A stretch of DNA of 32,000 bases from Nitrosarchaeum sp. (lineage in GTDB: Archaea > Thermoproteota > Nitrososphaeria > Nitrososphaerales > Nitrosopumilaceae): positions 260,488 to 292,487 of the forward strand of contig JAILWJ010000001.1 of NCBI GenBank assembly GCA_025699025.1, written 5' to 3'. The stretch's first letter is position 1; the number at the start of each line of letters is the position of its first letter. The position numbers and the translations under genes are program-made. Below, in pieces: positions 4,568 to 18,697 of the stretch. The notes below the pieces were generated by a model. That model made no database searches and had not been told where the DNA came from. It saw only the letters and a list, made by a program, of their open reading frames with translations.

Positions 4568-6078
4568 GAATCAGGATATTTGACACTACACTAAGAGACG
4601 GAGAACAGACCCCTGGAATCTCCTTATCCCCTGAGCAAAAGCTTTCCATTGCAAAAAAGCTTGACGAGTTAGGAGTTGATGCAATAGAGGCAGGGTTTCC
4701 TGTAATCTCTGAAGGTGAATTCAAGGCAGTCAAGATGATTGCTAGTGCGGGTTTAAATTGCGACATCTGTGGTTTGGCAAGAACCAGCAAAAAAGACATT
4801 GATGCTGCTGCCGATGCAGGATTGAACTACATCCATACATTCATTGCAACTTCGGACATTCACTTGCAATACAAATTAAAGATGACCCGTGAGCAGGCGC
4901 TTGCAAAAGCAATAGAGGCAGTAGAGTATGGCAAGTCACGCGGATTGCAGGTAGAATTTTCTGCTGAAGATGCAACGCGAACTGACAGGGAGTTTTTGAA
5001 AAAGGTATTTGGTGAAGTTGCAAAAGCAGGTGCTGACAGGATAGACATACCTGACACCGTTGGATATTCCACTCCTGAATACATTGCAGAAATTACCAGG
5101 GATGCAATTGCTGCAACGAATCTTCCGATAAGTGTTCACTGTCATAATGATTTTGGACTGGCAGTGGCAAACGCGCTCTCTGGAATAAGAGCAGGTGCCC
5201 AGTGTGCACATGTTACAATTAACGGAATCGGGGAGAGAGCAGGGAACGCCTCCTTGGAGGAGTTTGTCATGGCACTAAAATGCCTCCAGTATGATCAAAA
5301 GTATGAAACAGGAATAAAGTCCGAACTAATCTATGACACATCCAGGTTTGTCTCAAAGATAGTTGGCATCCAGGTACAGCCAAACAAAGCCATAGTGGGT
5401 GATAATGCGTTTGGACACGAGTCTGGCATACACACACATGGAATCTTGAGCAATCCGTTGACGTATGAGCCAATTAGCCCCGAGCTAGTTGGAAGAAAGA
5501 GATGGCTTCAAGTCGGAAAGCATGCAGGAATTCATGGCATGAATGCAATGCTTGCCGAATATGGAATCAAACCCTCTGAGGATCAGTCAAAGCAAATCCT
5601 TGACAAGGTCAAGGTACTGGGTGACCAAGGAAAGCAAGTCACTGATGTAGAGTTGCTCTCAATTGCAAGTGACATCTTGGGCGAAAAGGGAATCAAGAGG
5701 ATTGTTCAACTGACTGGATTTTCAGTCTCTACTGGAATCGGGACGATGCCTTATGCATTTGTAAAACTAAACATTGACGGCAATGACTTTATCGGAACTG
5801 ACTATGGAGTTGGACCAGTCGATGCAGCCCTCAATGCAATTCAAAAAATCACCGGAAAGATATCTGAAGTCAAGATCAAAGACTATGGACTTGCATCAAT
5901 CTCTGGCGGCTCTACTGCATTGTGTGAGGTGACCATTCGCGTTGAGGATGCACAAGGAAACAACGTGTCTGCAAAGTCTGTAGGCGAGGACATTGTAACT
6001 ACCAGCGTTCAGGCAGTAATTGACGGATTGAATCGAATAATGCTCAAGAAAATGCTTCAAGAGAAGCAGCTAAACTAA
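4564..6078 (+). CDS. leuA: 2-isopropylmalate synthase (LeuA/CimA family; citramalate synthase cannot be excluded)
   Basis: 504 aa. Motifs FDTTLRDGEQ, HCHNDFGLAVAN and GIGERAGNASLEE, plus a C-terminal LeuA-type regulatory domain. Its ATG overlaps the ilvN stop (ATGA at 4564-4567). Confidence 0.85.
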   Translation: MRIRIFDTTLRDGEQTPGISLSPEQKLSIAKKLDELGVDAIEAGFPVISEGEFKAVKMIASAGLNCDICGLARTSKKDIDAAADAGLNYIHTFIATSDIHLQYKLKMTREQALAKAIEAVEYGKSRGLQVEFSAEDATRTDREFLKKVFGEVAKAGADRIDIPDTVGYSTPEYIAEITRDAIAATNLPISVHCHNDFGLAVANALSGIRAGAQCAHVTINGIGERAGNASLEEFVMALKCLQYDQKYETGIKSELIYDTSRFVSKIVGIQVQPNKAIVGDNAFGHESGIHTHGILSNPLTYEPISPELVGRKRWLQVGKHAGIHGMNAMLAEYGIKPSEDQSKQILDKVKVLGDQGKQVTDVELLSIASDILGEKGIKRIVQLTGFSVSTGIGTMPYAFVKLNIDGNDFIGTDYGVGPVDAALNAIQKITGKISEVKIKDYGLASISGGSTALCEVTIRVEDAQGNNVSAKSVGEDIVTTSVQAVIDGLNRIMLKKMLQEKQLN

Positions 6079-8222: not shown

Positions 8223-8257
8223 ATGGTGTGTGGTTTCCTGAAGAATAAAAATCTGAA

Positions 8258-8272
8258 TCCCACTAGACCCGC
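8258..8272. repeat. Left attachment-site core (attL): TCCCACTAGACCCGC
   Basis: Perfect 15-bp direct repeat of 18683-18697. It lies 9 nt upstream of the integrase ORF and 35 nt upstream of the ATG of the 81-aa ORF. Confidence 0.8.
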
Positions 8273-8280
8273 CATCCTTA

Positions 8281-9717
8281 TTGGTCTTAAAATACGACCC
8301 GCCACATTATGTATCATTGAAGATAAACTATGATGATATCAACAGCAGAAACAATCCATACCAGTTATTCTTGGATAACATCAAGAGTCCAGAGACTGCA
8401 AGAAAATACAAAAAGATGCTAGAGAGGTTTCTGCTATCCATTCCAGATCAGGTATATGAAAATACAAAGGTAAAGTCAGATCTTAAAAGCATGATAAAGC
8501 ATTTTGTTGCCCTTGCAAAAAAGAATCCAGATTTGGCAACTGACATCATTGCAACATACATCAAAGAGGAAAAGAAACTGGTAGAGGCAGGCAAGCTAAG
8601 CTCAGGAACACTAGAGAATCATATCAAGCCAATCAAGGTACTACTTGATGCAAACAGAATCGCCATACACTGGAAGTCCCTGCACAGATTATACCCAAGA
8701 AAGCAGAGCACCACAAATGACAGGGCATACACAAAAGCAGAACTGCAAAAGATGCTAGAGGTTGCACGAGACCTCACAGACAAGGTGATAATTACCGTAT
8801 TCTCATCAGGGGGATTCAGGCTAGAGGCGTGGAACTATTTTACATGGAAGGACATCAAACTGTTCAAAAATCAAGACAACTCCTACAAGGGAGGAGCCTT
8901 GTTAGTATACAGTAATGATGAGGAGAGCTACTGGACTCACATCACTCCAGAGGCTTGCAAATACGTGGAGATGTACCGAGAAAAATGGAAGTCTGACATT
9001 GGGGTTTATCCAAAAGATGATCAGCCGTTTCTAAAGGCAGTAAAGTATCCCACTATCCACAGGCTGAATTCAACTGGCGTCAAAAAGAGAATCGGAAAAA
9101 TTGTAAAGGCAATCGGTATGCGAGATTCATTGCCTGAAGGCAAGAAGAGATACGAGGTTCCACTAGATCACGGGTTTAGAAAATATTTCAACACCATGAT
9201 GAGGCGTGCCAAGGTAAACTATCTGGACAAAGAGGACATGATGGGACACAAGGTAGGATTGGAAAAACACTATGAGCGATATCAGGAAGAGGACTTTGAG
9301 CGATTCCCCGAGTATCAAAAGGCAATAGCATTTCTTACCATATCAGATGAGGACAGGCTACGCTTTGAGAACCAGCAAAAGCAAGAGATACTAGATGAGG
9401 TTACGCAGAAAGACTATCAGATTGAAGACATGTCAGCAAGACTAAGCGAGGTGGAAAACGAGGTGAAAAACGGGCGGAACACAAGATGGAACTCACTTTT
9501 CCAAGAATCTTTCAGACATCAAGACAATGAGAAGGTACAGCTGATTCTTACCCTGTTGCACATGTGGTTTGAGATGAGGGCAACAGAAGAGGAAAAACAA
9601 GCGTTATGGAAGAAGCTCCAAGACGCAAAAAAGGAAGGAAAACCACTAAACATCATGGATATGTTAGATCCAGACAAGGATGAGCTTAGCTGGAAGAACC
9701 TCTACTCCAAAAAGTAA
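8281..9717 (+). CDS. Tyrosine recombinase / integrase with a long C-terminal coiled-coil extension
   Basis: 478 aa. Catalytic pattern R (GGFRLEA, R180), HxxR (DHGFRKYF, H297/R300), H (MMGHKVG, H323) and Y (EKHYERY, Y331/Y334). An N-terminal SAM-like region is present (SPETARKYKKMLERFL). There is no in-frame ATG before M46, so the start is non-ATG (TTG 8281 or 8317). Confidence 0.9.
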   Translation: MVLKYDPPHYVSLKINYDDINSRNNPYQLFLDNIKSPETARKYKKMLERFLLSIPDQVYENTKVKSDLKSMIKHFVALAKKNPDLATDIIATYIKEEKKLVEAGKLSSGTLENHIKPIKVLLDANRIAIHWKSLHRLYPRKQSTTNDRAYTKAELQKMLEVARDLTDKVIITVFSSGGFRLEAWNYFTWKDIKLFKNQDNSYKGGALLVYSNDEESYWTHITPEACKYVEMYREKWKSDIGVYPKDDQPFLKAVKYPTIHRLNSTGVKKRIGKIVKAIGMRDSLPEGKKRYEVPLDHGFRKYFNTMMRRAKVNYLDKEDMMGHKVGLEKHYERYQEEDFERFPEYQKAIAFLTISDEDRLRFENQQKQEILDEVTQKDYQIEDMSARLSEVENEVKNGRNTRWNSLFQESFRHQDNEKVQLILTLLHMWFEMRATEEEKQALWKKLQDAKKEGKPLNIMDMLDPDKDELSWKNLYSKK

Positions 9718-10182
9718 ATCCAATCATTCTCTACATCGATACAAGTCGTTAATCGGATTAACGCTACTTCTTACAACCATGCAAGACCCCTTTTTGTAGA
9801 GGTCGTTAGGCATGACATGTTAGGCATGAATAGTAGATGTAGAGCCCGTGTAGTCCAGATGTAGAGATTGTTAAAGATTGTAATGCCTAACGATGTGTTA
9901 ACAGTCGTTAATAGTGCATAGTCATTAGAGATATCATTTGTAATAACATGTAGAAAAATTTGTGCCTAACGTTAATGTCTAATGTAAGAAGTGTTAAGCC
10001 TGACACCATATCTGACACAATCTGTCAGGCTTTACGTACAAAATAACATCATTCTACTCTTTCAAAATGTACCAGAGTGTCAGGTCATAACAGAACAAAA
10101 AACTAGTTTTAGTGTTTTTGACTATATTTTTTATTTTTGGTATAATCTTGTTTTATAGGATTCATAACTATGTCAGACTCGC
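9718..10182. promoter_or_regulatory. Non-coding block dense in iterated and inverted short motifs (candidate origin or regulatory region of the element)
   Basis: GTTAGGCA occurs 4 times: + at 9805 and 9819, reverse complement at 9884-9891 and 9963-9970. GTCGTTAA is at 9745 and 9904. AGATGTAGAG is at 9835 and 9857. CGTTAAT-cgg-ATTAACG palindrome at 9747-9763. AGCCTGACA/TGTCAGGCT inverted repeat at 9997-10005 and 10023-10031. TGTCAG(G/A) family occurs 5 times. No ORF of 60 aa or more. Confidence 0.6.
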
Positions 10183-10344
10183 ATGAAATTGGAACATAAG
10201 ATGTCTAGCAAAAAATGTGGTATTGATGTAAAAAGAAAAAAGAGAAGTGGAAAACATTCACACAAAATACAAGTAATGGTTGAATTTAAGAAATATCACT
10301 TAATCAAGTTGCTAAATCAAATAGAACAAATTCATAGGTTAGGA

Positions 10345-10863
10345 TTAACACGCCAAATTCTCTTCATCATTTAGCATGTTCCAAAAATCCAATGCAGTGT
10401 ACTGTTCTGATACTACATATGGAATTCCAATTATTGTTGTTTGAAATTGGATTACTATATCCATCTTTCTAGGATCGATTCTAACGGTATTGTCACTGTC
10501 ACTAAACAAGTGATCAAAATGCATGAAAAGAGTTTGTGAATACTCTATTGATTCTGAAATATACTCTCCATTTGCTTTAAAGATTGAATTTGGTTTAATG
10601 CTTGCTGAATCAATTACATAAGTACCTAAAAGTTTTTTTTCAAAATAAATCAGTATGTCCAACTCGTTATAATTTGCTGGAATTAAAGAATTATTACAAA
10701 TATTGATTTTACCATCTGCCGTATAAAATGTAAAAAATCTAAAAAGATTATCTATTCCACCAAATTCAAGTTGCTCTAAAGCATAGATATTCAATAATGA
10801 ATTTCCTACTGTGCCAATTATGACTATAATTGCAATAAAACTAATTATTTTTTGTTTTTCCAT
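10345..10863 (-). CDS. Hypothetical N-terminally membrane-anchored protein (172 aa)
   Basis: One N-terminal TM helix (IISFIAIIVIIGTVGNSLL) followed by a beta-rich ectodomain. Abuts the upstream 94-aa ORF with a 2-nt gap. Confidence 0.5.
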   Translation of the reverse strand: MEKQKIISFIAIIVIIGTVGNSLLNIYALEQLEFGGIDNLFRFFTFYTADGKINICNNSLIPANYNELDILIYFEKKLLGTYVIDSASIKPNSIFKANGEYISESIEYSQTLFMHFDHLFSDSDNTVRIDPRKMDIVIQFQTTIIGIPYVVSEQYTALDFWNMLNDEENLAC

Positions 10864-10865
10864 AT

Positions 10866-11150
10866 CTATCTAGTAGGATTCATCAGAATTGCTCTCTCTT
10901 TTATTTTTGCATCATATGTAGCAACTATGACCTCACCATCTTCAGCATCGCACTGACCTATGTTTATTGCAAAATTATCCATAGTCTGAACAATACATCC
11001 ATCTACTGTATTTGCAACCACCATTACTCTTTCAGTCACTTCATCAGGTGAAACATACCATACAAGGTAAACAAGCAGTCCAATTCCGACAGTAACTACT
11101 GCAATAAAAATTTGGATTGTAGTTTTGTTGTTCCTTGCATAATCTGACAT
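10866..11150 (-). CDS. Hypothetical N-terminally membrane-anchored protein (94 aa)
   Basis: TM helix IQIFIAVVTVGIGLLVYLVWYV followed by a small domain with two Cys. ATG start. Confidence 0.45.
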   Translation of the reverse strand: MSDYARNNKTTIQIFIAVVTVGIGLLVYLVWYVSPDEVTERVMVVANTVDGCIVQTMDNFAINIGQCDAEDGEVIVATYDAKIKERAILMNPTR

Positions 11151-11239
11151 GCTTTTGATTGTAATATGAATAGATAATCCCTCTTATTGTTTGATGTTTC
11201 TACCAATCTTTTTTATTATCAGATATGTATTTTTAAAAT
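11151..11239. promoter_or_regulatory. Divergent intergenic promoter region inside the element
   Basis: An 89-bp A/T-rich spacer between divergent genes, with A/T boxes (cttttttattatc, gtatttttaaaat) just upstream of the ATG at 11240. Promoter presence is inferred from gene arrangement only. Confidence 0.3.
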
Positions 11240-11623
11240 ATGCAGAAAACACATCTTGACAATGGTTCAAAATTCAAGATTCTTGCATTAATTAGTGGAA
11301 TACTAATTTCAATTAGCGTACCTGTTTTTTTACCTCACTTTCTTCATGGACATGGAGTCCACGTGTCTATTCATCTAGCTGGAATAGGTTTGGGCTCATT
11401 TCTTTCTATAATCGGGGCTATGACATATCTGGAATACAAAACAACGAGGCTACTTTTGGTATTTTTTGCGTTTTTTGTAATAACCATAGCTGAAATTTTA
11501 TCTGCATTAAATATGGTTCTTATTTTTTGGCCTTCTTATTCCAGTGTTGATTCAATTGTTACCCATCTACTCATTCTCATGATGCTGTCTTTCTTTTCAA
11601 TAGGAATATTCAGGAGAGATTAG
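11240..11623 (+). CDS. Small polytopic membrane protein with a His-rich segment
   Basis: 127 aa, about 4 hydrophobic helices, His cluster PHFLHGHGVHVSIH. Its stop lies 1 nt before the next ATG. Confidence 0.55.
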   Translation: MQKTHLDNGSKFKILALISGILISISVPVFLPHFLHGHGVHVSIHLAGIGLGSFLSIIGAMTYLEYKTTRLLLVFFAFFVITIAEILSALNMVLIFWPSYSSVDSIVTHLLILMMLSFFSIGIFRRD

Positions 11624-11624
11624 C

Positions 11625-12131
11625 ATGTCTAATGCAGTTGAAAAAAGGAAAAAAATTCTAAAAATAATTATCGAAAATCCGGGTGCAGGTTTTCTAGACA
11701 TACAAAAAAATACAGGTTATGGTCACGGTAATCTTAGCCATCATTTGAAAACGCTGGAGCAAGAAGGCTCAATCAGGATTAGACGAGAAAAGAGAAAGGT
11801 TTGGGTTTTTGATTCTGCATCAGATCCAAATTATGATCGATTTTGGATGTTTCTTAGAAAAGAAACTTGCAAGAAAATTCTTATTTTTCTTTTAGAAGAA
11901 AGATTTGCAAGTTTTGCCCATATACGAGATGCCATAAAAAAAAGTCCCGGTACCACATCTACTACTATGAAGACGTTAATGGAGAAAAAACTGATTAAGA
12001 AAATTCCAGGATTTCCTGATATATACACATTAGAAGATTATGAAAAAACTAAAAAAATCATAGACAGAATGAATGTATCTCAAACTGATGAGTTAAAAGA
12101 TAGGTTTGTAGACACATTCTCTTATTATTGA
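11625..12131 (+). CDS. Winged-helix (ArsR/MarR-like) transcriptional regulator with two wHTH-like halves
   Basis: 168 aa. ILKIIIENPGAGFLDIQKNTGYGHGNLSHHLKTLEQEGSIRIRRE is a classic ArsR-type wHTH. A second similar unit follows (ILIFLLEERFASFAHIRDAIKKSPGTTSTTMKTLMEKKLIKK). Confidence 0.65.
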   Translation: MSNAVEKRKKILKIIIENPGAGFLDIQKNTGYGHGNLSHHLKTLEQEGSIRIRREKRKVWVFDSASDPNYDRFWMFLRKETCKKILIFLLEERFASFAHIRDAIKKSPGTTSTTMKTLMEKKLIKKIPGFPDIYTLEDYEKTKKIIDRMNVSQTDELKDRFVDTFSYY

Positions 12132-12203
12132 TCACGTTGCTTAAAGTGGTATAACCATCAAACAATCTGTATAATTATTAGAGTCTGAGAGAATATTTTT
12201 CAG

Positions 12204-13238
12204 ATGAGAACATACGGAGCAAACACAAGTTTTCTATATACAGTTATGATTGGTTCTCTGTTTATGGTTATTGGTGTATCGAATACGGAGTTATCACATG
12301 CCGAAGAGTTTAGAGTAAACATTCCATATGGAGCATTTAATCCGGAATTAAATACTCCTGCTGAAGTATGGTATGATCCTCCAATTATAGAAATCAGTGT
12401 TGGGGACATGATAACTTGGTATAATGATGACAGAGAAGGTCATACTGTTACTAGTGGGGAAGGTTCAGGAAGATTTGGTTGGATGAGTGATAATTTTGGA
12501 ACTCCCGATGGATATTTTGACAGTGGACGATTTATGCCTGGTGAGTCTTGGTCATTCCAATTTGAAGAATCTGGAACATTTTCATATTTCTGTGTAATTC
12601 ATCCTTGGATGGAAGGGATTGTTAATGTTCAAGCTGCAATACCTGATTATCCACACGATGCAAGCGGGAAAAAAATTGAACAGTTTCCAATGTATCAGAT
12701 AACACCAGACCAATCAGTTGAAATTAATTTTTCATGGGAACCCAAAGTAATCAAAACTCATGAAAAAGTAAATTTCATCTATCGGTTTTATGATGCAGTA
12801 AACGATCTTCCATTAAGAAAAATGCAATATGACATTTTCATTATTCATAATGGAAAAGAGGTGTATAGTGAAAATGGTGCAGTATCTGGAGCAGGGGGAG
12901 ATTATCGGCAATGGATTTATGAAGAACCAGGCACTACAATTGTAAAAATTCAAAATATCAAACCTTATGGAACTGTAGCTGAAATGGAAATATCTTTTTC
13001 AGATGATTCTTCGGGTAGATTAGCTGATTTTAGTACAATAGTATATGAAAATACAGAAAAGACTTTCACTACACAAGAAATCATTCAACCTAAACAAACA
13101 TTCCAGTTTTACTATGAAATCGCAGTTGCAATAATTGCAGTTCCTGCAATCATGTTGCTTGCAATCGTCATCTATATGAAAAATAAAGGATCTAAAACGC
13201 CAATAAATCAAGGAGAAAGGAAATCTAGCCCTATCTAA
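12204..13238 (+). CDS. Exported, C-terminally membrane-anchored type-1 copper protein (plastocyanin-like cupredoxin domain plus a second beta domain)
   Basis: 344 aa. N-terminal signal/TM. Cupredoxin ligand pattern His (EGHTVTSG) ... Cys-x2-His-x2-Met (YFCVIHPWMEG). C-terminal TM helix IAVAIIAVPAIMLLAIVIYM. Confidence 0.8.
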   Translation: MRTYGANTSFLYTVMIGSLFMVIGVSNTELSHAEEFRVNIPYGAFNPELNTPAEVWYDPPIIEISVGDMITWYNDDREGHTVTSGEGSGRFGWMSDNFGTPDGYFDSGRFMPGESWSFQFEESGTFSYFCVIHPWMEGIVNVQAAIPDYPHDASGKKIEQFPMYQITPDQSVEINFSWEPKVIKTHEKVNFIYRFYDAVNDLPLRKMQYDIFIIHNGKEVYSENGAVSGAGGDYRQWIYEEPGTTIVKIQNIKPYGTVAEMEISFSDDSSGRLADFSTIVYENTEKTFTTQEIIQPKQTFQFYYEIAVAIIAVPAIMLLAIVIYMKNKGSKTPINQGERKSSPI

Positions 13239-13242
13239 AATC

Positions 13243-13905
13243 ATGGAAATAAAAAAAGAACGTCAAATAATTCGTTGGGCACTTATTCTTTCCATCGTTT
13301 CTGGCACGTCATATCTTGTTGTTTTGTTTTCAGATACTTCAGATTCTTCAAAAAATACAATTTTAGGTACAGAGATTGCTGTTTCTGGCTTTGGTGAAAT
13401 TAAATTGTATAATCCAGAAAAAGTAAATCTATTTTCAACTAATACCTATCAAGATACAAATCTGGGATTTCAAATTTCAAAACCAAACAATGATTGGGAG
13501 ATTCATTCTGCACTTGATGAACTAAACACGAATGAATTGAATTCCTTGAAAACCAAGGGATTTCTTGACGGAGTATTTGTTGAGCAAGATCATGACAGAC
13601 GTTTCATGTTAACTATATTTGATATTCAAAAAGAAAATTTTTCATTGCATGAATATGTGGATAATCAAATCTCCCTCATGGAGTCTCAAAATATTGTACT
13701 TCAATTTGAACAAGTCTCATCTGAAGATGATTGGGCAATATTTGCAGTTGAATCCTCAGATGAAAAACAATATGGAGAGCATCTTTTATTTCTAAAGGAA
13801 AACAGATTGTACATGTTACAGTATTCAGGAGATTCTCCACAATCCATTAATTTAGAACAGAAAAATGATTTTCAATTTATTATGGATTCATTTGAGGTAA
13901 TTTAG
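13243..13905 (+). CDS. Hypothetical N-terminally membrane-anchored protein (220 aa)
   Basis: TM helix WALILSIVSGTSYLVVLF followed by a soluble domain. Starts 4 nt after the previous stop, and its own stop abuts the next start. Confidence 0.55.
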   Translation: MEIKKERQIIRWALILSIVSGTSYLVVLFSDTSDSSKNTILGTEIAVSGFGEIKLYNPEKVNLFSTNTYQDTNLGFQISKPNNDWEIHSALDELNTNELNSLKTKGFLDGVFVEQDHDRRFMLTIFDIQKENFSLHEYVDNQISLMESQNIVLQFEQVSSEDDWAIFAVESSDEKQYGEHLLFLKENRLYMLQYSGDSPQSINLEQKNDFQFIMDSFEVI

Positions 13906-15474
13906 TTGAACTTCTCAGTACCGTTTTTAGCAATTTTTCTTGTTGTTAGTCTAGGATTTTCTACAGATTTTGCATTTGGTCATGGTTTAGGCGGTGAGAT
14001 GCTCCCTCCAACAACAATTGGAGACAGAGATGCAACTCTTTCCATAGATATTTCTCCTTCTACATTTGATCCAGAGAATCCTGAAAATTTTGTAACTCTA
14101 AGATTGTTTGACTCTAACACAGAAGCAGTGATTGAGCACGTGACCTTTATTTTGGAGCTCAAAAAAGACGGGGAACGAATTTTCAGATACATGTTTCATG
14201 ATGAGTTTGGAAATCTAAACTTTCGTGTAATCTCTGATAATTCTGATAAAATTTCTGTCAATGGCGCTCAAGAGCCTCTTTTGGGAGGCTGGATGAGGGG
14301 AAATGATGGACCTCTAACTCTAACAGGACCAATCTTTACGTCTGGTGGACTCTATGAGTATAAAGTAGAAGTTTTAACAGTTGATTCAGATGATAATGTG
14401 TTAGATCACCGAGTAGAATTAGAAGGTGCAATCAGTCTTGCTGATGTTAAGACTTTTGAGGTTGCAGACAGCAAAAACCAATCTCATGATGTTCAAGTTA
14501 TATCATATTTTGATACTATACGCGAGTTTGATTTTGATTCAAATCAAATGATCTTCTCTATGCCTTTTGATTGGAATCAAGACTTGGAACAACTAAGTGT
14601 TATTCATGAAGAAGTAAGAGTGCCAAACACTTTCGGGGAATTTCTATCTACAAGATACAACTCGTATGCCAATGGAATCTTGTTGCCAGATCAAGTTGTA
14701 ACTATAGATGATTATTCTTTTGATGATAGAACAGTTCATATGACAATTTATCGTGACCTGATAAAAGAAATTAAAGAAAAAGCAATCAAGACTTCTGATT
14801 CTAAAATAGATTTCAAGCTAGAGACCAACGACAATGTAAAATTTCCACTAGAGTTTGCAACTCCTGACTATCGATTCAAAGTATTCCTATCTTGGGATCC
14901 TGAAACAATTCGTGCGGGAGAAAAGACAACGTTTTTTGTAGATTTTGATGAGCTGTTTAGTGCAAAGACAAAAAGAATTACAGAGTACGATTTGACTGTA
15001 ATCCAAAATGGTGAAGAAATTTACAAAAAACATCTAACTGGAAATGTCAATTCGGATACTCCAAATTCTCACAAGATAATGTTTGCCCCAGAACATTCAG
15101 GAACTGCAAATATTTTCCTCTCAAATATTGATGGAAATTCTCTCTCAAAGGGAAATTTTATCATAGTAATTGAACCACCATTCAGATCTCAAGAATCCAA
15201 TTCCAATGAAATTCCTTCATGGATTAAGAATAATGCAGGGTGGTGGGCAGATGATTCCATAGATGATGAGACCTTTGTGCAAGGAATACAATTTTTGATT
15301 AAACAAAACATATTGCAAATTTCTTCTATCACTCCTAAAGAATCCAATTCCAATGAAATTCCTTCATGGATTAAGAATAATGCAAAATGGTGGGCAGATG
15401 GACAGATAGATGACAATTCATTTCTTCAAGGAATTCAACACTTGATTAAAAATGGAATTATTTTTGTAAATTGA
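13906..15474 (+). CDS. Secreted multi-domain protein with two C-terminal ~49-aa Trp-rich repeats
   Basis: 522 aa, TTG start. Signal-like N-terminus FLAIFLVVSLGFSTDFAFG followed by HG. An internal domain is similar to one in the 12204 ORF. The C-terminus carries two copies of ESNSNEIPSWIKNNAxWWADxxIDDxxFxQGIQxLIK. Confidence 0.65.
   Translation: MNFSVPFLAIFLVVSLGFSTDFAFGHGLGGEMLPPTTIGDRDATLSIDISPSTFDPENPENFVTLRLFDSNTEAVIEHVTFILELKKDGERIFRYMFHDEFGNLNFRVISDNSDKISVNGAQEPLLGGWMRGNDGPLTLTGPIFTSGGLYEYKVEVLTVDSDDNVLDHRVELEGAISLADVKTFEVADSKNQSHDVQVISYFDTIREFDFDSNQMIFSMPFDWNQDLEQLSVIHEEVRVPNTFGEFLSTRYNSYANGILLPDQVVTIDDYSFDDRTVHMTIYRDLIKEIKEKAIKTSDSKIDFKLETNDNVKFPLEFATPDYRFKVFLSWDPETIRAGEKTTFFVDFDELFSAKTKRITEYDLTVIQNGEEIYKKHLTGNVNSDTPNSHKIMFAPEHSGTANIFLSNIDGNSLSKGNFIIVIEPPFRSQESNSNEIPSWIKNNAGWWADDSIDDETFVQGIQFLIKQNILQISSITPKESNSNEIPSWIKNNAKWWADGQIDDNSFLQGIQHLIKNGIIFVN
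15191..15400 (+). repeat. Direct repeat with 147-nt period inside the 13906 ORF
   Basis: 47 nt are identical (15191-15237 versus 15338-15384). After a 3-nt difference, 13 more nt are identical (tggtgggcagatg). Confidence 0.9.
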
Positions 15475-15491
15475 GCAGTTTGTGATTAAAA

Positions 15492-15710
15492 ATGAATTTT
15501 TGTAAAGGTTTTTGCAAACGATTTGAAGTTAAGAGTTTCAAAGCCAAAACACGATATGAAAATAATCAAAAACGATGTCCTGTATGTGAAGTTTACATAA
15601 AATGTACTGAAGTAAGATGTCCTTGTTGTAGTGTAAAACTGCGAATTACTCCCAGAGCAAATCATTCTAGAAAGCTATTTCATAAAAGAAAGAATGAATC
15701 AAGACATTAA
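15492..15710 (+). CDS. Basic zinc-ribbon mini-protein (72 aa)
   Basis: CPVC...x11...CPCC, flanked by K/R-rich segments. ATG start 17 nt after the previous stop. Confidence 0.5.
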   Translation: MNFCKGFCKRFEVKSFKAKTRYENNQKRCPVCEVYIKCTEVRCPCCSVKLRITPRANHSRKLFHKRKNESRH

Positions 15711-15745
15711 TAACATAATGAAACTAATTTTTTGGTACAGTATTA

Positions 15746-16369
15746 ATGCCAGACGATGATGATTTACCAAAAGATCTAGATCATATCACACCTGCATATC
15801 GTAGGGCATTGTGGATTGTTGTTTTGATCAATGTAGGGTATGGAATTGCTGAGATGATTGGAGGATTCCTTGCAGATTCTCAAGCACTCAAAGCTGATGC
15901 ACTTGATTTTCTAGGTGACGGTTCTATCACGTTCTTAGGATTGCTTGCAATAGGATGGGGTTTGAAATTACGTGCGTGCTCAGCTTTACTACAAGGAATT
16001 TTTCTTGGAGTAATGGGTATAGCAGTGCTTGGCTATACGATATACCGTACACAAGTTCTGCATACTCCTGAAGCTGGATTGATGGGAGTTTTTGGCATTG
16101 GTGCACTTTTGATCAATGTCATTGCAGTTATCATTCTACTTCCACATCGAAAAGGTGACGCCAATGTACGGGCAGTATGGATATTTAGTCGCAATGATGC
16201 ACTAGGTAATATTTTGGTAATAGTTGGTGCAGGTTTTGTATTTTTGACAGGTACATCATACCCTGATCTCATAGTAGCTGGAGTAATTGCTAGTCTCTTT
16301 TTACAATCATCATTATCAATCATTAAAGACGCAAGAAATGATATAAGAGAATCAGAATCTATGAAGTGA
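15746..16369 (+). CDS. Cation diffusion facilitator (CDF)-like transporter, membrane domain only
   Basis: 207 aa, about 6 hydrophobic helices. LKADALDFLGD (TM2-like DxxxD) and SRNDALGN (TM5-like) resemble CDF metal-site motifs. It is too short to carry the usual cytoplasmic C-terminal domain. Confidence 0.6.
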   Translation: MPDDDDLPKDLDHITPAYRRALWIVVLINVGYGIAEMIGGFLADSQALKADALDFLGDGSITFLGLLAIGWGLKLRACSALLQGIFLGVMGIAVLGYTIYRTQVLHTPEAGLMGVFGIGALLINVIAVIILLPHRKGDANVRAVWIFSRNDALGNILVIVGAGFVFLTGTSYPDLIVAGVIASLFLQSSLSIIKDARNDIRESESMK

Positions 16370-16425
16370 AAATCAAAATTGAATATTATGAGATTTTATA
16401 TATTTGAGATTGTATCAGATTTTTT

Positions 16426-17274
16426 ATGACAAACCAATATGTAATAATTGGAATTGCAGTTGGGGTATTTGTTGCTGGGATTGGAATAGGTTATGGAATT
16501 TCACAAAGCACAGTAACTTCAAACTTTATGCACATGACACCACAACAGATGCAACAAATGATGGATGATCCTAACATGATGAACCAATGGATGGGCACTA
16601 TGATGAATAATCCACAAACCATAACAGAGATGCACAACATGATGATGTCTAATCCTCAATACATGAATCAAATGATGAGTACTATGATGAACATGATGAT
16701 GGATGATCCACAAATGCAACAACAAATGATGACTCACATGATGAATAATCAGGGAATGATGGACACTATGATGAATAATCAAGACATGATGAACATGATT
16801 ATGGGAAACAACATGATGGATGGAAATATGATGGGAAACAACATGATGGGTTCAGGAATGATGAGCTCTCAATCTTCTCAAACAATTCCCACTAATGAAG
16901 ATCCTCAAACTAGAATATTTCAAATTAGTATGGAAGAAGTAGAGTTCTATGCTGAAGTCAAAAATGAAGGAGAAGAAACAATAGCATTTGTTGAATTACA
17001 CAGATGGGAGCCAAATACAATAATTGTTAATCAAGGAGATACTGTTGTTCTTGAAATTACTAATCCAAGAAAACATGCACACACATTATCAATTCCTGCA
17101 TTTAACATAAATTCAGAAATGCTTGAACCACGAGGAGGAGTAGATGCTGTAACATTTGTTGCAGATAGTCCAGGAGTTTTTACATTTTATTGTGGATTAC
17201 CATATAATCCTGACAAACTGTATTGTGATCCTGATCATAGTATGATGACAGGGACTTTGATTGTTTTAGAATAA
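16426..17274 (+). CDS. Membrane-anchored Met-rich protein fused to a C-terminal cupredoxin-like domain
   Basis: 282 aa. N-terminal TM (YVIIGIAVGVFVAGIGIGYGI). About 43 Met in ~113 residues by hand count. C-terminal beta domain with His (KHAHTLSIP) and FYCGLPYNPDKLYCDPDHSMMTG (C...C-x3-H-x2-M). Confidence 0.75.
   Translation: MTNQYVIIGIAVGVFVAGIGIGYGISQSTVTSNFMHMTPQQMQQMMDDPNMMNQWMGTMMNNPQTITEMHNMMMSNPQYMNQMMSTMMNMMMDDPQMQQQMMTHMMNNQGMMDTMMNNQDMMNMIMGNNMMDGNMMGNNMMGSGMMSSQSSQTIPTNEDPQTRIFQISMEEVEFYAEVKNEGEETIAFVELHRWEPNTIIVNQGDTVVLEITNPRKHAHTLSIPAFNINSEMLEPRGGVDAVTFVADSPGVFTFYCGLPYNPDKLYCDPDHSMMTGTLIVLE
16528..16866 (+). repeat. ATG-rich low-complexity coding region (Met-rich tract)
   Basis: Reiterated atgatg / aacatgatg units encode MM, MMM and NNMM motifs. 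Confidence 0.85.
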
Positions 17275-17541
17275 CCTAATTTTTATGTCTACTTGGTACC
17301 AAAATAATCCACAAAATAGTTTTAATCCTGCCACTGTCCCGTTACAATTTTAGTGTAGATAAAATCTTTTCAAAATTCCTCAACAGGATTTAGACCCTAT
17401 GATTAGTTATGATTCAAATTCTGAATTCTCTTTTACTTTCCAAACAAAAATCCACTAAATTCTGACAAGAAGATATTATAGAATTCTGATTTGAAATCTT
17501 TGAGAAATATTGATACTCCGTAGCCTCGAAGAAGTTTCACG

Positions 17542-18468
17542 TTATAATGATTCTTTGAATTTTTCAAAGTCATCTTTCAATTCCTTGTATTCAACATCAA
17601 GAAAAGGATCAGTTTGATTGAGTTGATTGTAAACCATGAATATTGCAATATTTAGGCAATTCCAAGATTCTTCAATTGTTACATCCCTGCTTTTTCTATG
17701 AACAATATCGTTTCTTAATTTTCGGAGTTTTGTTAAACAATCATAGCCTTTTTTGTTCAATTTTCCTGCAAAAGATAAGCTTTCGATATAATGACTAGTA
17801 TGCCATGAATGATGATTTCTTAATCCGTCTTTTTCAAACTTATTTCTATCAAGTAAAGATACATAATCATTCCAAATTTTTTCCAAAATATTTTCAATTA
17901 CAATCCATGACAAAAGAAAAGATACTTGGTATAATCCGTCTTGAAATAAGCCACTAGATTCCCCAATTAGTAAAGAATCTGTTTTGTAATCAGGCTTTCT
18001 AAAAAAAGAATATGCTTGTTGAATCAATCTTTTCATTAATAGGGGGTAGATTGTTTGTCTTTCAATACTGAGCCACTCTGATTGATGGGACTCTTTATCT
18101 TCCCGTTTCCATTCTTGTAGCGATCTTAGTGATTTGGAAATACGAGTTGAAATGTGTGCTAATTTTTTATTATTCTCAATTTCAAAATAACATAAATCGT
18201 CTTTTGTAATGAATCTGGCTCTGTGAAATTTTGTTACAAAAATAGCAAATAAAACATTCATGAAGTCAAACGCATCTGCATAATTTTGTGTTATTGGACA
18301 GACAAAACAATCATCAGTTACTAATACTCTAAAATCATCAGAGCATTGCACATCCACTTTAATTGGTCTTCCAAAAAATGCACAATCCATGTATTCTTCT
18401 AGATCCCCTTGAATCTTAGATGGAGGGTAGAAAAAAGATCCAAAACCCGAAAGTTTTTCATCACTCAT
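17542..18468 (-). CDS. HEPN-motif protein (possible Abi-like RNase); N-terminal domain unknown
   Basis: 308 aa. C-terminal helical region with LTKLRKLRNDIVHRKS, i.e. Rx4H (R252..H257, nt 17698-17715), preceded by helices WIVIENILEKIW. It is the only cargo gene on the minus strand at the distal end of the element. Confidence 0.55.
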   Translation of the reverse strand: MSDEKLSGFGSFFYPPSKIQGDLEEYMDCAFFGRPIKVDVQCSDDFRVLVTDDCFVCPITQNYADAFDFMNVLFAIFVTKFHRARFITKDDLCYFEIENNKKLAHISTRISKSLRSLQEWKREDKESHQSEWLSIERQTIYPLLMKRLIQQAYSFFRKPDYKTDSLLIGESSGLFQDGLYQVSFLLSWIVIENILEKIWNDYVSLLDRNKFEKDGLRNHHSWHTSHYIESLSFAGKLNKKGYDCLTKLRKLRNDIVHRKSRDVTIEESWNCLNIAIFMVYNQLNQTDPFLDVEYKELKDDFEKFKESL

Positions 18469-18682
18469 AATCTTGAACTAATTAATTCTGTCTTAAGATT
18501 TACGACAACACAGCATGTTTTCTCTCACAAAAGTGGGGGATACCATTTTTACTGATTGTCGACAAAAAGGGAACACGCCCCATTTTCGATGGAGTGTTCA
18601 TTCAAATCGATTGAATGTTACATAAAACAGTGAATTTAGGCACGAAGTTGGGTCTGAAATTAGACCCAGAAAGGTATATCAG

Positions 18683-18697
18683 TCCCACTAGACCCGC
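18683..18697. repeat. Right attachment-site core (attR): TCCCACTAGACCCGC
   Basis: Perfect copy of 8258-8272. It lies 42 nt downstream of the aspS stop codon (18740-18742, minus strand). Confidence 0.8.

Follow-up and report, generated by a model that had tools for sequence, protein, structure and literature searches.

What is the function of an archaeal protein that joins an extremely methionine-rich tract to a copper-protein fold, and why does its gene stand beside that of a cation transporter? The question is raised by a gene at positions 16426..17274 of a 32,000-nucleotide stretch of Nitrosarchaeum sp. DNA (contig JAILWJ010000001.1, positions 260,488 to 292,487; the whole stretch is called the window here). 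This open reading frame (ORF), on the + strand and with an ATG start, encodes a protein of 282 amino acids (aa), for which an exact look-up in public assemblies gave no record. Ammonia-oxidising archaea drive marine nitrification and depend unusually heavily on copper proteins, and to our knowledge the ways in which they acquire, buffer and detoxify copper are largely unknown. We propose, with confidence about evenly divided for and against, that the protein is an accessory extracytoplasmic copper protein in which a methionine-only Cu(I) capture zone is mounted on a redox-active copper centre, alongside a short cation diffusion facilitator (CDF) encoded just upstream. The locus is a concrete candidate for copper handling, with a portable module of up to 30-38% Met that occurs on two cupredoxin classes or alone, and consistently has an atypical short CDF encoded next to it. 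Its ingredients (cupredoxin, Met-rich copper region, CDF) are of known kinds; what appears to be undescribed is a Met tract so extreme and so modular, the long loop in a CuA-like site, the conserved pairing with a CDF and the island setting. A literature search found nothing that links Met-rich proteins to ammonia-oxidising archaea (Thaumarchaeota) or to CDFs, or Nitrosopumilus to CDFs.

Domain architecture

The protein consists of an N-terminal hydrophobic helix, a Met-rich tract, a linker and a C-terminal cupredoxin domain, with the following positions and supporting evidence (AF2, AlphaFold2; pLDDT, predicted local distance difference test).

16438..16506, + strand: N-terminal hydrophobic helix, about residues 5-27, a membrane anchor or uncleaved signal (Kyte-Doolittle, AF2)
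16528..16803, + strand: Met-rich helical-repeat tract, residues 35-126, with units like [DN]P[QN]xMxQ(M/W)MxxMM (Met count, AF2, DNA repeats)
16804..16905, + strand: disordered Gly/Asn/Met/Ser-rich linker, residues 127-160, ending in a SSQSSQTIPT..PQTR junction (AF2 pLDDT, orthologue alignment)
16906..17271, + strand: cupredoxin domain, residues 161-282 (PF13473, AF2, Foldseek)
17080..17082, + strand: H219, the N-terminal His ligand position, aligned to H114 of Thermus ba3 CuA (invariant in 55/55; alignment)
17191..17247, + strand: ligand loop C256-GL-[PYNPDKL]-Y-C267-DPD-H271-SM-M274, a CuA-type set with a 7-residue insertion (family alignment)

An earlier note on this DNA, made from the sequence alone, had counted about 43 Met (~38%) over residues 35-147 behind one hydrophobic helix. 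A script count returned 43 Met in these residues, or 38.1%, and four in residues 148-282, and placed the helix at residues 5-27. The highest-scoring 19-residue Kyte-Doolittle windows begin at residues 5-7, the AF2 prediction has a helix at residues 4-18, and the N-terminal sequence MVSQxIxIGIAVGVFFAGIGIGY is common to the orthologues. In distant homologues, lipobox-like or Sec-type signals take the place of this helix, which supports an extracytoplasmic location.

Cupredoxin fold and metal site

At the level of models, the cupredoxin fold of the C-terminal domain is established by the agreement of a Pfam score, a predicted structure and its structural matches, as the earlier note had supposed. 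The match to PF13473 (Cupredoxin_1; E=1.1e-6, 29.1 bits) lies above the cut-off of 27, and the AF2 model of residues 152-282, built with 19 homologues, is all-beta with a mean pLDDT of 89.4. Foldseek returned 520 PDB matches at E<=1e-3, and all 50 listed are cupredoxin-containing copper proteins, among them the extra N-terminal cupredoxin of Hyphomicrobium NirK and the CuA domain of NosZ (root-mean-square deviation 1.3 Å over 87 columns). The best structural match is nitrosocyanin of Nitrosomonas (1iby/1ibz; for 1ibz E=1.8e-9, TM-score 0.76), like the window domain a PF13473-type cupredoxin from an ammonia oxidiser. Nitrosocyanin coordinates its copper by one Cys, two His and a Glu, with the loop C-x2-H-x4-H, and its alignment to the window domain stops at the first Cys. 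Membership in the nitrosocyanin family was rejected, with a TIGR03096 score of 27.8 against a cut-off of 142.85, and a PF00127 scan of the protein gave no match at E<=0.1.

The protein carries the motifs KHAHTL (H217, H219) and FYC256GLPYNPDKLYC267DPDH271SMM274. The earlier note had likened the latter to the second half of a CuA motif, which understated the likeness. In a phmmer alignment all five side-chain ligand positions (His, Cys, Cys, His, Met) coincide, H219, C256, C267, H271 and M274 falling on what we take to be the CuA ligands H114, C149, C153, H157 and M160 of Thermus ba3. The fold is that of the CuA domains of cytochrome c oxidase subunit II and NosZ (Thermus ba3, 2cua/6pty; P. stutzeri NosZ, 3sbp), and the C-x3-H-x2-M half is identical. 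The difference lies between the two Cys, where the window protein has C-x10-C (9-13 across the family) rather than C-x3-C, with a 7-residue gap in the alignment to Thermus ba3. The same clean 7-residue insertion is seen against small stand-alone cupredoxins with the canonical C-x3-C-x3-H-x2-M motif from Woesearchaeota and other metagenome-assembled genomes (MAGs; L024-L031), which are the nearest sequence relatives outside the long-loop family.

With the domain as query, an exhaustive profile search gave 4353 relatives at E<=1e-3. Of the 150 best-ranking representatives, which we classified, 61 have the long loop (C-x9-13-C) and 40 have C-x3-C; the Cys-Cys spacing of the long-loop members is 10 in 44, 12 in 12, 9 in 3, 11 in 1 and 13 in 1. 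H219, C256, C267 and H271 are invariant in 55/55 long-loop representatives, and H217 is conserved in just 24/55. H192 (ELHRW), invariant in a first alignment of 19 sequences, was dropped as an essential ligand since it is present in 38/55 of the wider members. The search thus exposes a structurally uncharacterised cupredoxin subfamily of at least 61 clusters at 50% identity among the top 150 matches, and a CuA ligand set broken by a 7-9-residue insertion bears on how copper electron-transfer sites evolve and are tuned.

From these alignments the site appears to be CuA-derived and altered by the 7-residue insertion. The spacing C267-x3-H271-x2-M274 also fits a type-1 site; the second Cys is invariant. 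The site might accordingly hold two coppers, as CuA does, or one, as type-1 sites do. In the AF2 models, DSSP marks N261 and Y266 as isolated strand or bridge residues (full-length model) or Y266 alone (152-282 model) and names no partners. If N261 and Y266 pair with each other, residues 259-265 would fit a looped-out hairpin, and the pairing would leave C256-G-L...Y-C267 in roughly a C-x3-C register.

The domain has no oxidase or NosZ catalytic partner domain, and identity as CoxB or NosZ was rejected. The models TIGR02866, TIGR04246, TIGR04244 and NF052460 gave scores far below their cut-offs (20.7 vs 147.7, 35.2 vs 625, 29.7 vs 625, 33.9 vs 700), and only the C-terminal ~100-175 model positions, at the cupredoxin/CuA end, match.

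Long-loop homologues that lack a Met tract come from Nitrososphaerota and from bacterial MAGs (one Armatimonadota, others unclassified or Candidatus Calidihabitans). Downstream of one such homologue lie genes for NrfC-like 4Fe-4S and NrfD-like proteins, confirmed by Pfam (L018:4579-7316). Sequence clustering also placed an NrfC-like ORF (4686-5555) in region 4686-7050 of L019; in L022:5398-8178 and L023:5402-8161 it pointed to long ORFs of which one part is NrfD-like. This neighbourhood suggests that the ancestral domain may have served in quinol-linked electron transfer; together with the lipoprotein and Sec signals, it fits an electron-transfer cupredoxin outside the cell.

The methionine-rich tract

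Across 22 further long ORFs of the window Met makes up 2.64% of the residues, and against this background at least 43 Met in 113 residues has a binomial probability of ~7e-38. Besides Met, the tract has much Asn, Gln and Asp; it contains three His but no His-rich segment. No PDB or Pfam relatives of it were found, all matches being at chance level. Its DNA is built of imperfect tandem units with periods of 15, 30 and 54 nt. An antisense His-rich ORF at 16519..16782 is a by-product of this composition, because ATG reads as CAT on the opposite strand.

In the full-length AF2 model the tract is predicted to form seven short helices (residues 39-47, 49-60, 63-75, 77-93, 95-107, 109-117 and 119-126), each of which begins at a [DN]P[QN] motif. 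The pLDDT by blocks is ~80 for residues 41-60, then 73-79, and falls to 59-67 beyond residue 100; the linker of residues 127-160 is predicted to be disordered, with pLDDT <50 over residues 126-146. Compared with shuffled sequences, Met pairs are depleted at i+2 (z -3.9) and i+3 (z -2.2); those at i+1, i+4 and i+5 are nominally in excess (z +0.8 to +1.8, not significant). On predicted helices, the MM-x3-MM-like spacing pattern would line Met along one face.

Complete orthologues with a long tract were found in 12 Nitrosopumilus or Nitrosarchaeum MAGs. All have the transmembrane (TM) anchor, the tract and the cupredoxin; in their tracts, 114-154 aa long, Met makes up 25-34% of the residues, His occurs 0-6 times, Lys and Arg are nearly absent and Cys is wholly so, and the SSQSSQTIPT..PQTR junction is kept. 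Other complete genes have short tracts of 40-74 aa (P0005, P0011-13, P0016, L015), with Met as low as 12% in L015 and P0012. The lengths given in databases for this family are unreliable, because many of the 150-225-aa "homologues" are incomplete, their start having been set at a Met codon within the tract, and because in one 55-kb contig (L001:1649-2594) a run of N, a scaffold gap, lies inside the tract with MSNPEHMNQM repeats on both sides.

With the tract alone as query, a database search recovered stand-alone proteins with a TM anchor and tract (the complete gene P0040, for instance), tracts fused to PF00127 type-1 domains with C-x2-H-x2-M (P0044, P0045, P0048), and tracts joined to other N-terminal domains (P0042, P0054). 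The Met-rich and cupredoxin fusions that the earlier note had proposed to look for thus exist with both CuA-like and type-1 domains. Two secreted proteins of 427 and 459 aa (L047:1889-3172 and L048:445-1824) contain 130 and 138 Met (30%) and consist almost wholly of Met/Asn/Gln/Pro repeats, preceded by a small two-Cys N-terminal domain (ITCADGKVLMM..ACVNP..RLADRGWGN); both adjoin a short CDF. The Met tract is therefore a reusable module in Nitrosopumilaceae, which occurs alone, on type-1 plastocyanin-like domains or on the CuA-like domain. Since four kinds of protein carry the same sort of tract, it is not an idiosyncratic linker.

One further protein, P0052, combines tract and cupredoxin with a domain of ~35 residues (NEIPSWIKNNAxWWAdgxIsDxxFlxGIqxLIkxgII), called WIKNN here, for which no Pfam match was found. 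In the window this domain occurs twice at the C-terminus of a 522-aa protein (13906-15474), where the two copies correspond to a DNA repeat (15188-15303 / 15335-15450). Elsewhere it is found in secreted archaeal proteins (L001:3085-4404, L016:3746-4375, P0021 and P0052).

Linkage to a short CDF transporter

Directly upstream of the cupredoxin gene, the window encodes a transporter:

15746..16369, + strand: short CDF of 207 aa, membrane domain only, without a C-terminal cytoplasmic domain (PF01545, E=2.4e-16)

The protein scores 78.4 bits against a TIGR01297 cut-off of 82.35 and has no ZT_dimer or other C-terminal domain. Its transport site consists of D-x3-D in TM2 and F-x3-D in TM5, where Phe replaces His, and includes no His, Cys or Met. 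The only PDB relative, a weak one, is the Ca/Mn antiporter SLC30A10.

In locus L036 the stand-alone Met-tract gene P0040 is closely followed by the gene for a CDF of 82% identity to that of the window, and a divergent helix-turn-helix (HTH)+TRASH regulator is also encoded there. A metagenome scan with the CDF gave 34 loci, of which we treated as informative those with an intact relative of at least 76% identity and enough flanking sequence. In 15/15 informative loci a Met-rich ORF adjoins the CDF, in at least six gene arrangements: the CDF precedes a secreted Met-rich protein of 461-467 aa with a type-1 domain at its end; it precedes the 427-aa protein with 130 Met; it comes after the 459-aa protein with 138 Met; convergent genes code for TM anchor and tract only; the upstream neighbour is a Met-rich YtkA-like protein; or, as in the window, the CDF lies upstream of the Met-tract cupredoxin gene. 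In ~160 kb of control DNA just two other Met-rich ORFs were found.

Two loci with a decayed CDF are without a Met tract. In these copies (L063:397-782 and L064:3001-3386) stop codons follow about residue 129, and in L064 the plastocyanin-like gene downstream encodes a TM anchor and no Met tract.

A putative integrated island

The gene pair lies within a larger candidate element:

8251..18697, no strand assigned: putative island carrying the module (integrase-like ORF, direct repeats, low GC)

Its borders are direct repeats at 8251-8272 and 18676-18697, a 22-nt element with a 15-nt exact core TCCCACTAGACCCGC. An integrase-like ORF (8281..9717), with a weak Pfam match to Phage_integrase, begins right after the first repeat. 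The GC content is 0.30-0.36 over ~10 to 18.5 kb compared with 0.39-0.45 outside. In another locus (L045) an integrase-like ORF lies ahead of the CDF. No tRNA was found at the island borders with ARAGORN or with Rfam at gathering and permissive thresholds. Carriage by viruses was rejected, as no relatives of the cupredoxin or the CDF were found among IMG/VR contigs. A scan of ~185,000 species genomes gave 30 loci with the module, all of them in MAGs, and no title among these names a cultured isolate. An integrated element probably carries the module as cargo, in keeping with this patchy occurrence.

At the right end of the island, a 308-aa ORF (17542-18468, - strand) has a weak match, below the cut-off, to a RiboL-PSP-type HEPN domain (E=4e-4). 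It may be a defence or toxin gene of the element.

Proposed function and alternative explanations

We propose that the N-terminal helix would hold the protein at the membrane, followed by a tract of ~90 residues of short, Met-lined helices and a floppy linker of ~35 residues. The tract would most likely act as a thioether-only, oxidation-tolerant Cu(I) zone of low affinity and high capacity, which captures Cu(I) under the S-layer. The terminal cupredoxin with its CuA-derived site (H219, C256, C267, H271, M274) would provide the redox-active copper centre, and might either receive copper from the tract or pass electrons to and from the copper bound there (Cu(I)/Cu(II)), as well as other cupredoxins. 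The portable tract would work together with the adjacent, atypical short CDF exporter. That the pair is carried on a probable island points to an accessory function in metal stress or homeostasis rather than to a core respiratory one.

Several findings weigh against this proposal. Positive charges are absent from the N-terminus, so that we infer the topology from the homologues only. Among the residues of the Cys/His/Met site marked in the earlier note, the Met was the one that did not prove conserved: in the 55 long-loop members the axial position 274 is M in 23, Q in 19 and I in 10, with L and V in others, a variation typical of type-1 sites and not of CuA; within the Nitrosopumilaceae clade the Met is retained. 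The tract ranges from ~40 to 154 aa across complete orthologues, is replaced by the unrelated WIKNN domain in P0021 and L016, and is missing from distant homologues in Nitrososphaerota and bacteria, so neither a fixed stoichiometry nor a fixed structure can be required of it. The D-x3-D/F-x3-D site of the CDF offers no soft ligands, which speaks against Cu(I) as its substrate, and CDFs are not established Cu(I) carriers. The link to the transporter drawn by the earlier note stands as a conserved gene adjacency; its suggestion that the tract feeds Cu(I) to the transporter is unlikely as written, because CDFs export from the cytoplasm and the site lacks His, Cys and Met. Most cupredoxin-bearing orthologues (L004-L010, L012-L014, L017), moreover, do not adjoin a CDF. 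Together with the varied gene arrangements, this means that the CDF is linked to Met-tract proteins generally and not to this cupredoxin family.

The variability of the tract also speaks for a plain electron-transfer cupredoxin on a low-complexity stalk, a redox carrier akin to its NrfCD-linked homologues, in which the tract would be a flexible spacer that brings the domain to partners under the S-layer and its composition a product of ATG-repeat slippage. The extreme range of lengths, the tandem repeats in the DNA, the assembly gap within the tract of L001, the homologues that do without a tract or have another domain in its place, and the predicted disorder of residues 127-160 are all in its favour. 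We nevertheless regard it as unlikely. Slippage fails to explain why Met stays at 25-34% among orthologues whose cupredoxin domains are only about 54-68% identical, and it fails to explain the helix-start motif, the absence of Cys and the near-absence of Lys and Arg. A bare stalk would be pointless, yet tract-only proteins exist (P0040; L042 and L050; L047 and L048), and the adjacency to a metal transporter is conserved. According to the earlier note, a tract that is highly length-variable or absent in orthologues would indicate a simple linker; such variation is literally what the orthologues display, but Met content, helix-start motif and re-use argue otherwise.

The all-carboxylate site of the CDF and its single PDB relative, a Ca/Mn antiporter, raise the question of whether the metal is copper at all. 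The CDF could export a borderline or hard cation (Mn2+, Fe2+, Zn2+ or Cd2+), and the Asp/Asn/Gln/Met tract could buffer that ion outside; the cupredoxin would then be incidental, or would oxidise the exported ion, e.g. Mn(II) or Fe(II). The abundance of Asn, Gln and Asp in the tract and the L011 orthologue, which lies beside a canonical HD-HD CDF, are in line with this explanation. By general coordination chemistry, however, a tract that offers thioethers alone, and no His, Cys or Glu, binds hard cations poorly; every fused domain is a copper protein, and the TRASH-type regulator and DUF326 neighbours point to copper. We therefore consider a non-copper metal rather improbable.

Our proposal can also be extended, to a version that we hold with equally little conviction, in which the copper centre of the long-loop (C-x9-13-C) cupredoxins would belong to a new spectroscopic class, distinct from both canonical CuA and type 1, and the Met-tract proteins with the short CDF would make up an unknown archaeal system that exports a soft metal and buffers it outside the cell. 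If true, the CDF might be the first to serve copper handling specifically, and integrative elements would have carried the system among ammonia oxidisers of marine and estuarine waters.

Least probable, in our judgement, is that the tract is an oxidant sink or redox sensor, whose surface-exposed Met would scavenge H2O2, HOCl or NO-derived oxidants or, by being reversibly oxidised, alter self-association as in eukaryotic Met-rich low-complexity domains, with the cupredoxin supplying or removing electrons: Met is an antioxidant residue, ammonia-oxidising archaea are peroxide-sensitive, and the Met density is very high on helices predicted to be amphipathic with Met-rich faces, but no methionine sulfoxide reductase gene was seen adjoining any locus examined, and the recurring partners (cupredoxins, CDF, TRASH regulator, DUF326) are metal-related.

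Comparison with known copper proteins

The proposed Met-only Cu(I) capture zone has analogues in bacterial copper proteins. CopI of Rubrivivax gelatinosus is a periplasmic cupredoxin that is implicated in copper tolerance and carries disordered His/Met copper-capture modules (PMC13308877). Judged by this description, the two proteins would share an analogous architecture, an extracytoplasmic cupredoxin with flexible Met-containing segments (PMC13308877). CopI has a type-1 site and short His-rich and His/Met-rich segments of ~17-18 residues, whereas the tract described here exceeds 100 residues, is essentially Met-only, with His numbering 2-6, and predicted to be helical, and precedes a two-Cys site. 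The Met-rich domains of CueO are transient recruitment sites for Cu(I), which they take from tightly chelated forms (PMC11494321). The findings on CueO (PMC11494321) and CopI (PMC13308877) lend support, by analogy, to a Met capture zone.

CueO and PcoA/CopA resemble the window protein in having a Met-rich region beside a copper redox centre, and PcoE/SilE in the "sponge" concept of many weak sites on a flexible chain that turns helical. In contrast to these systems, the window protein has no multicopper oxidase domain, its Met density is much higher (38% in the tract, and 30% of the whole 427-459-aa L047 and L048 proteins), and it is archaeal and apparently membrane-tethered, with a CDF as its linked partner in place of Cus or Pco systems.

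Neighbouring genes

Further elements close to the cupredoxin gene are the following.

16394..16403, + strand: TATA-box-like element TTTTATATAT, ~28 nt 5' of the ATG (read by eye from the sequence)
15492..15710, + strand: small Cys-rich protein of 72 aa with CxxxC, CPVC and CPCC motifs (no Pfam hit)

The reading of TTTTATATAT as TATA-like follows from general knowledge of archaeal promoters, and its position suggests that the cupredoxin gene may have its own promoter and a leaderless or near-leaderless transcript. Homologues of the Cys-rich protein are encoded near the module in L036 (51% identity), L011 (48%) and L013 (45%).

A conserved operon around the cupredoxin orthologues was rejected, the neighbourhoods of L004-L017 being mostly unrelated. 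Beside this type of cupredoxin a CDF occurs only in the window and in L011, where a full-length canonical HD-HD CDF with a ZT_dimer domain lies downstream of the orthologue. Copper-related neighbours of orthologues include plastocyanin-like genes and, directly upstream, DUF326 Cys-rich four-helix proteins of a copper-storage-like kind (L006:3081-3398 and L017:887-1207). Downstream of the L006 orthologue is a gene for a DM13 protein that itself has MMEDVMEDKMME repeats.

Farther upstream in the window (11240-12131), a gene for a 127-aa membrane protein, in which His residues cluster (FLHGHGVHVSIH), precedes one for a 168-aa winged-helix regulator. The same pair occurs near the Met-cupredoxin of a Nitrosarchaeum MAG (L011:1018-1933; 73% and 56% identity), accompanied there by a plastocyanin-like gene and the 72-aa Cys-rich protein, and may be a metal-sensing pair. 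Next to it, the window encodes a 344-aa protein (12204-13238) that has a type-1 plastocyanin-like domain (FCVIHPWMEG) at its N-terminus, a TM helix at its C-terminus and, between them, a long region without a family match; it is 69% identical to the product of a gene near the L011 orthologue.

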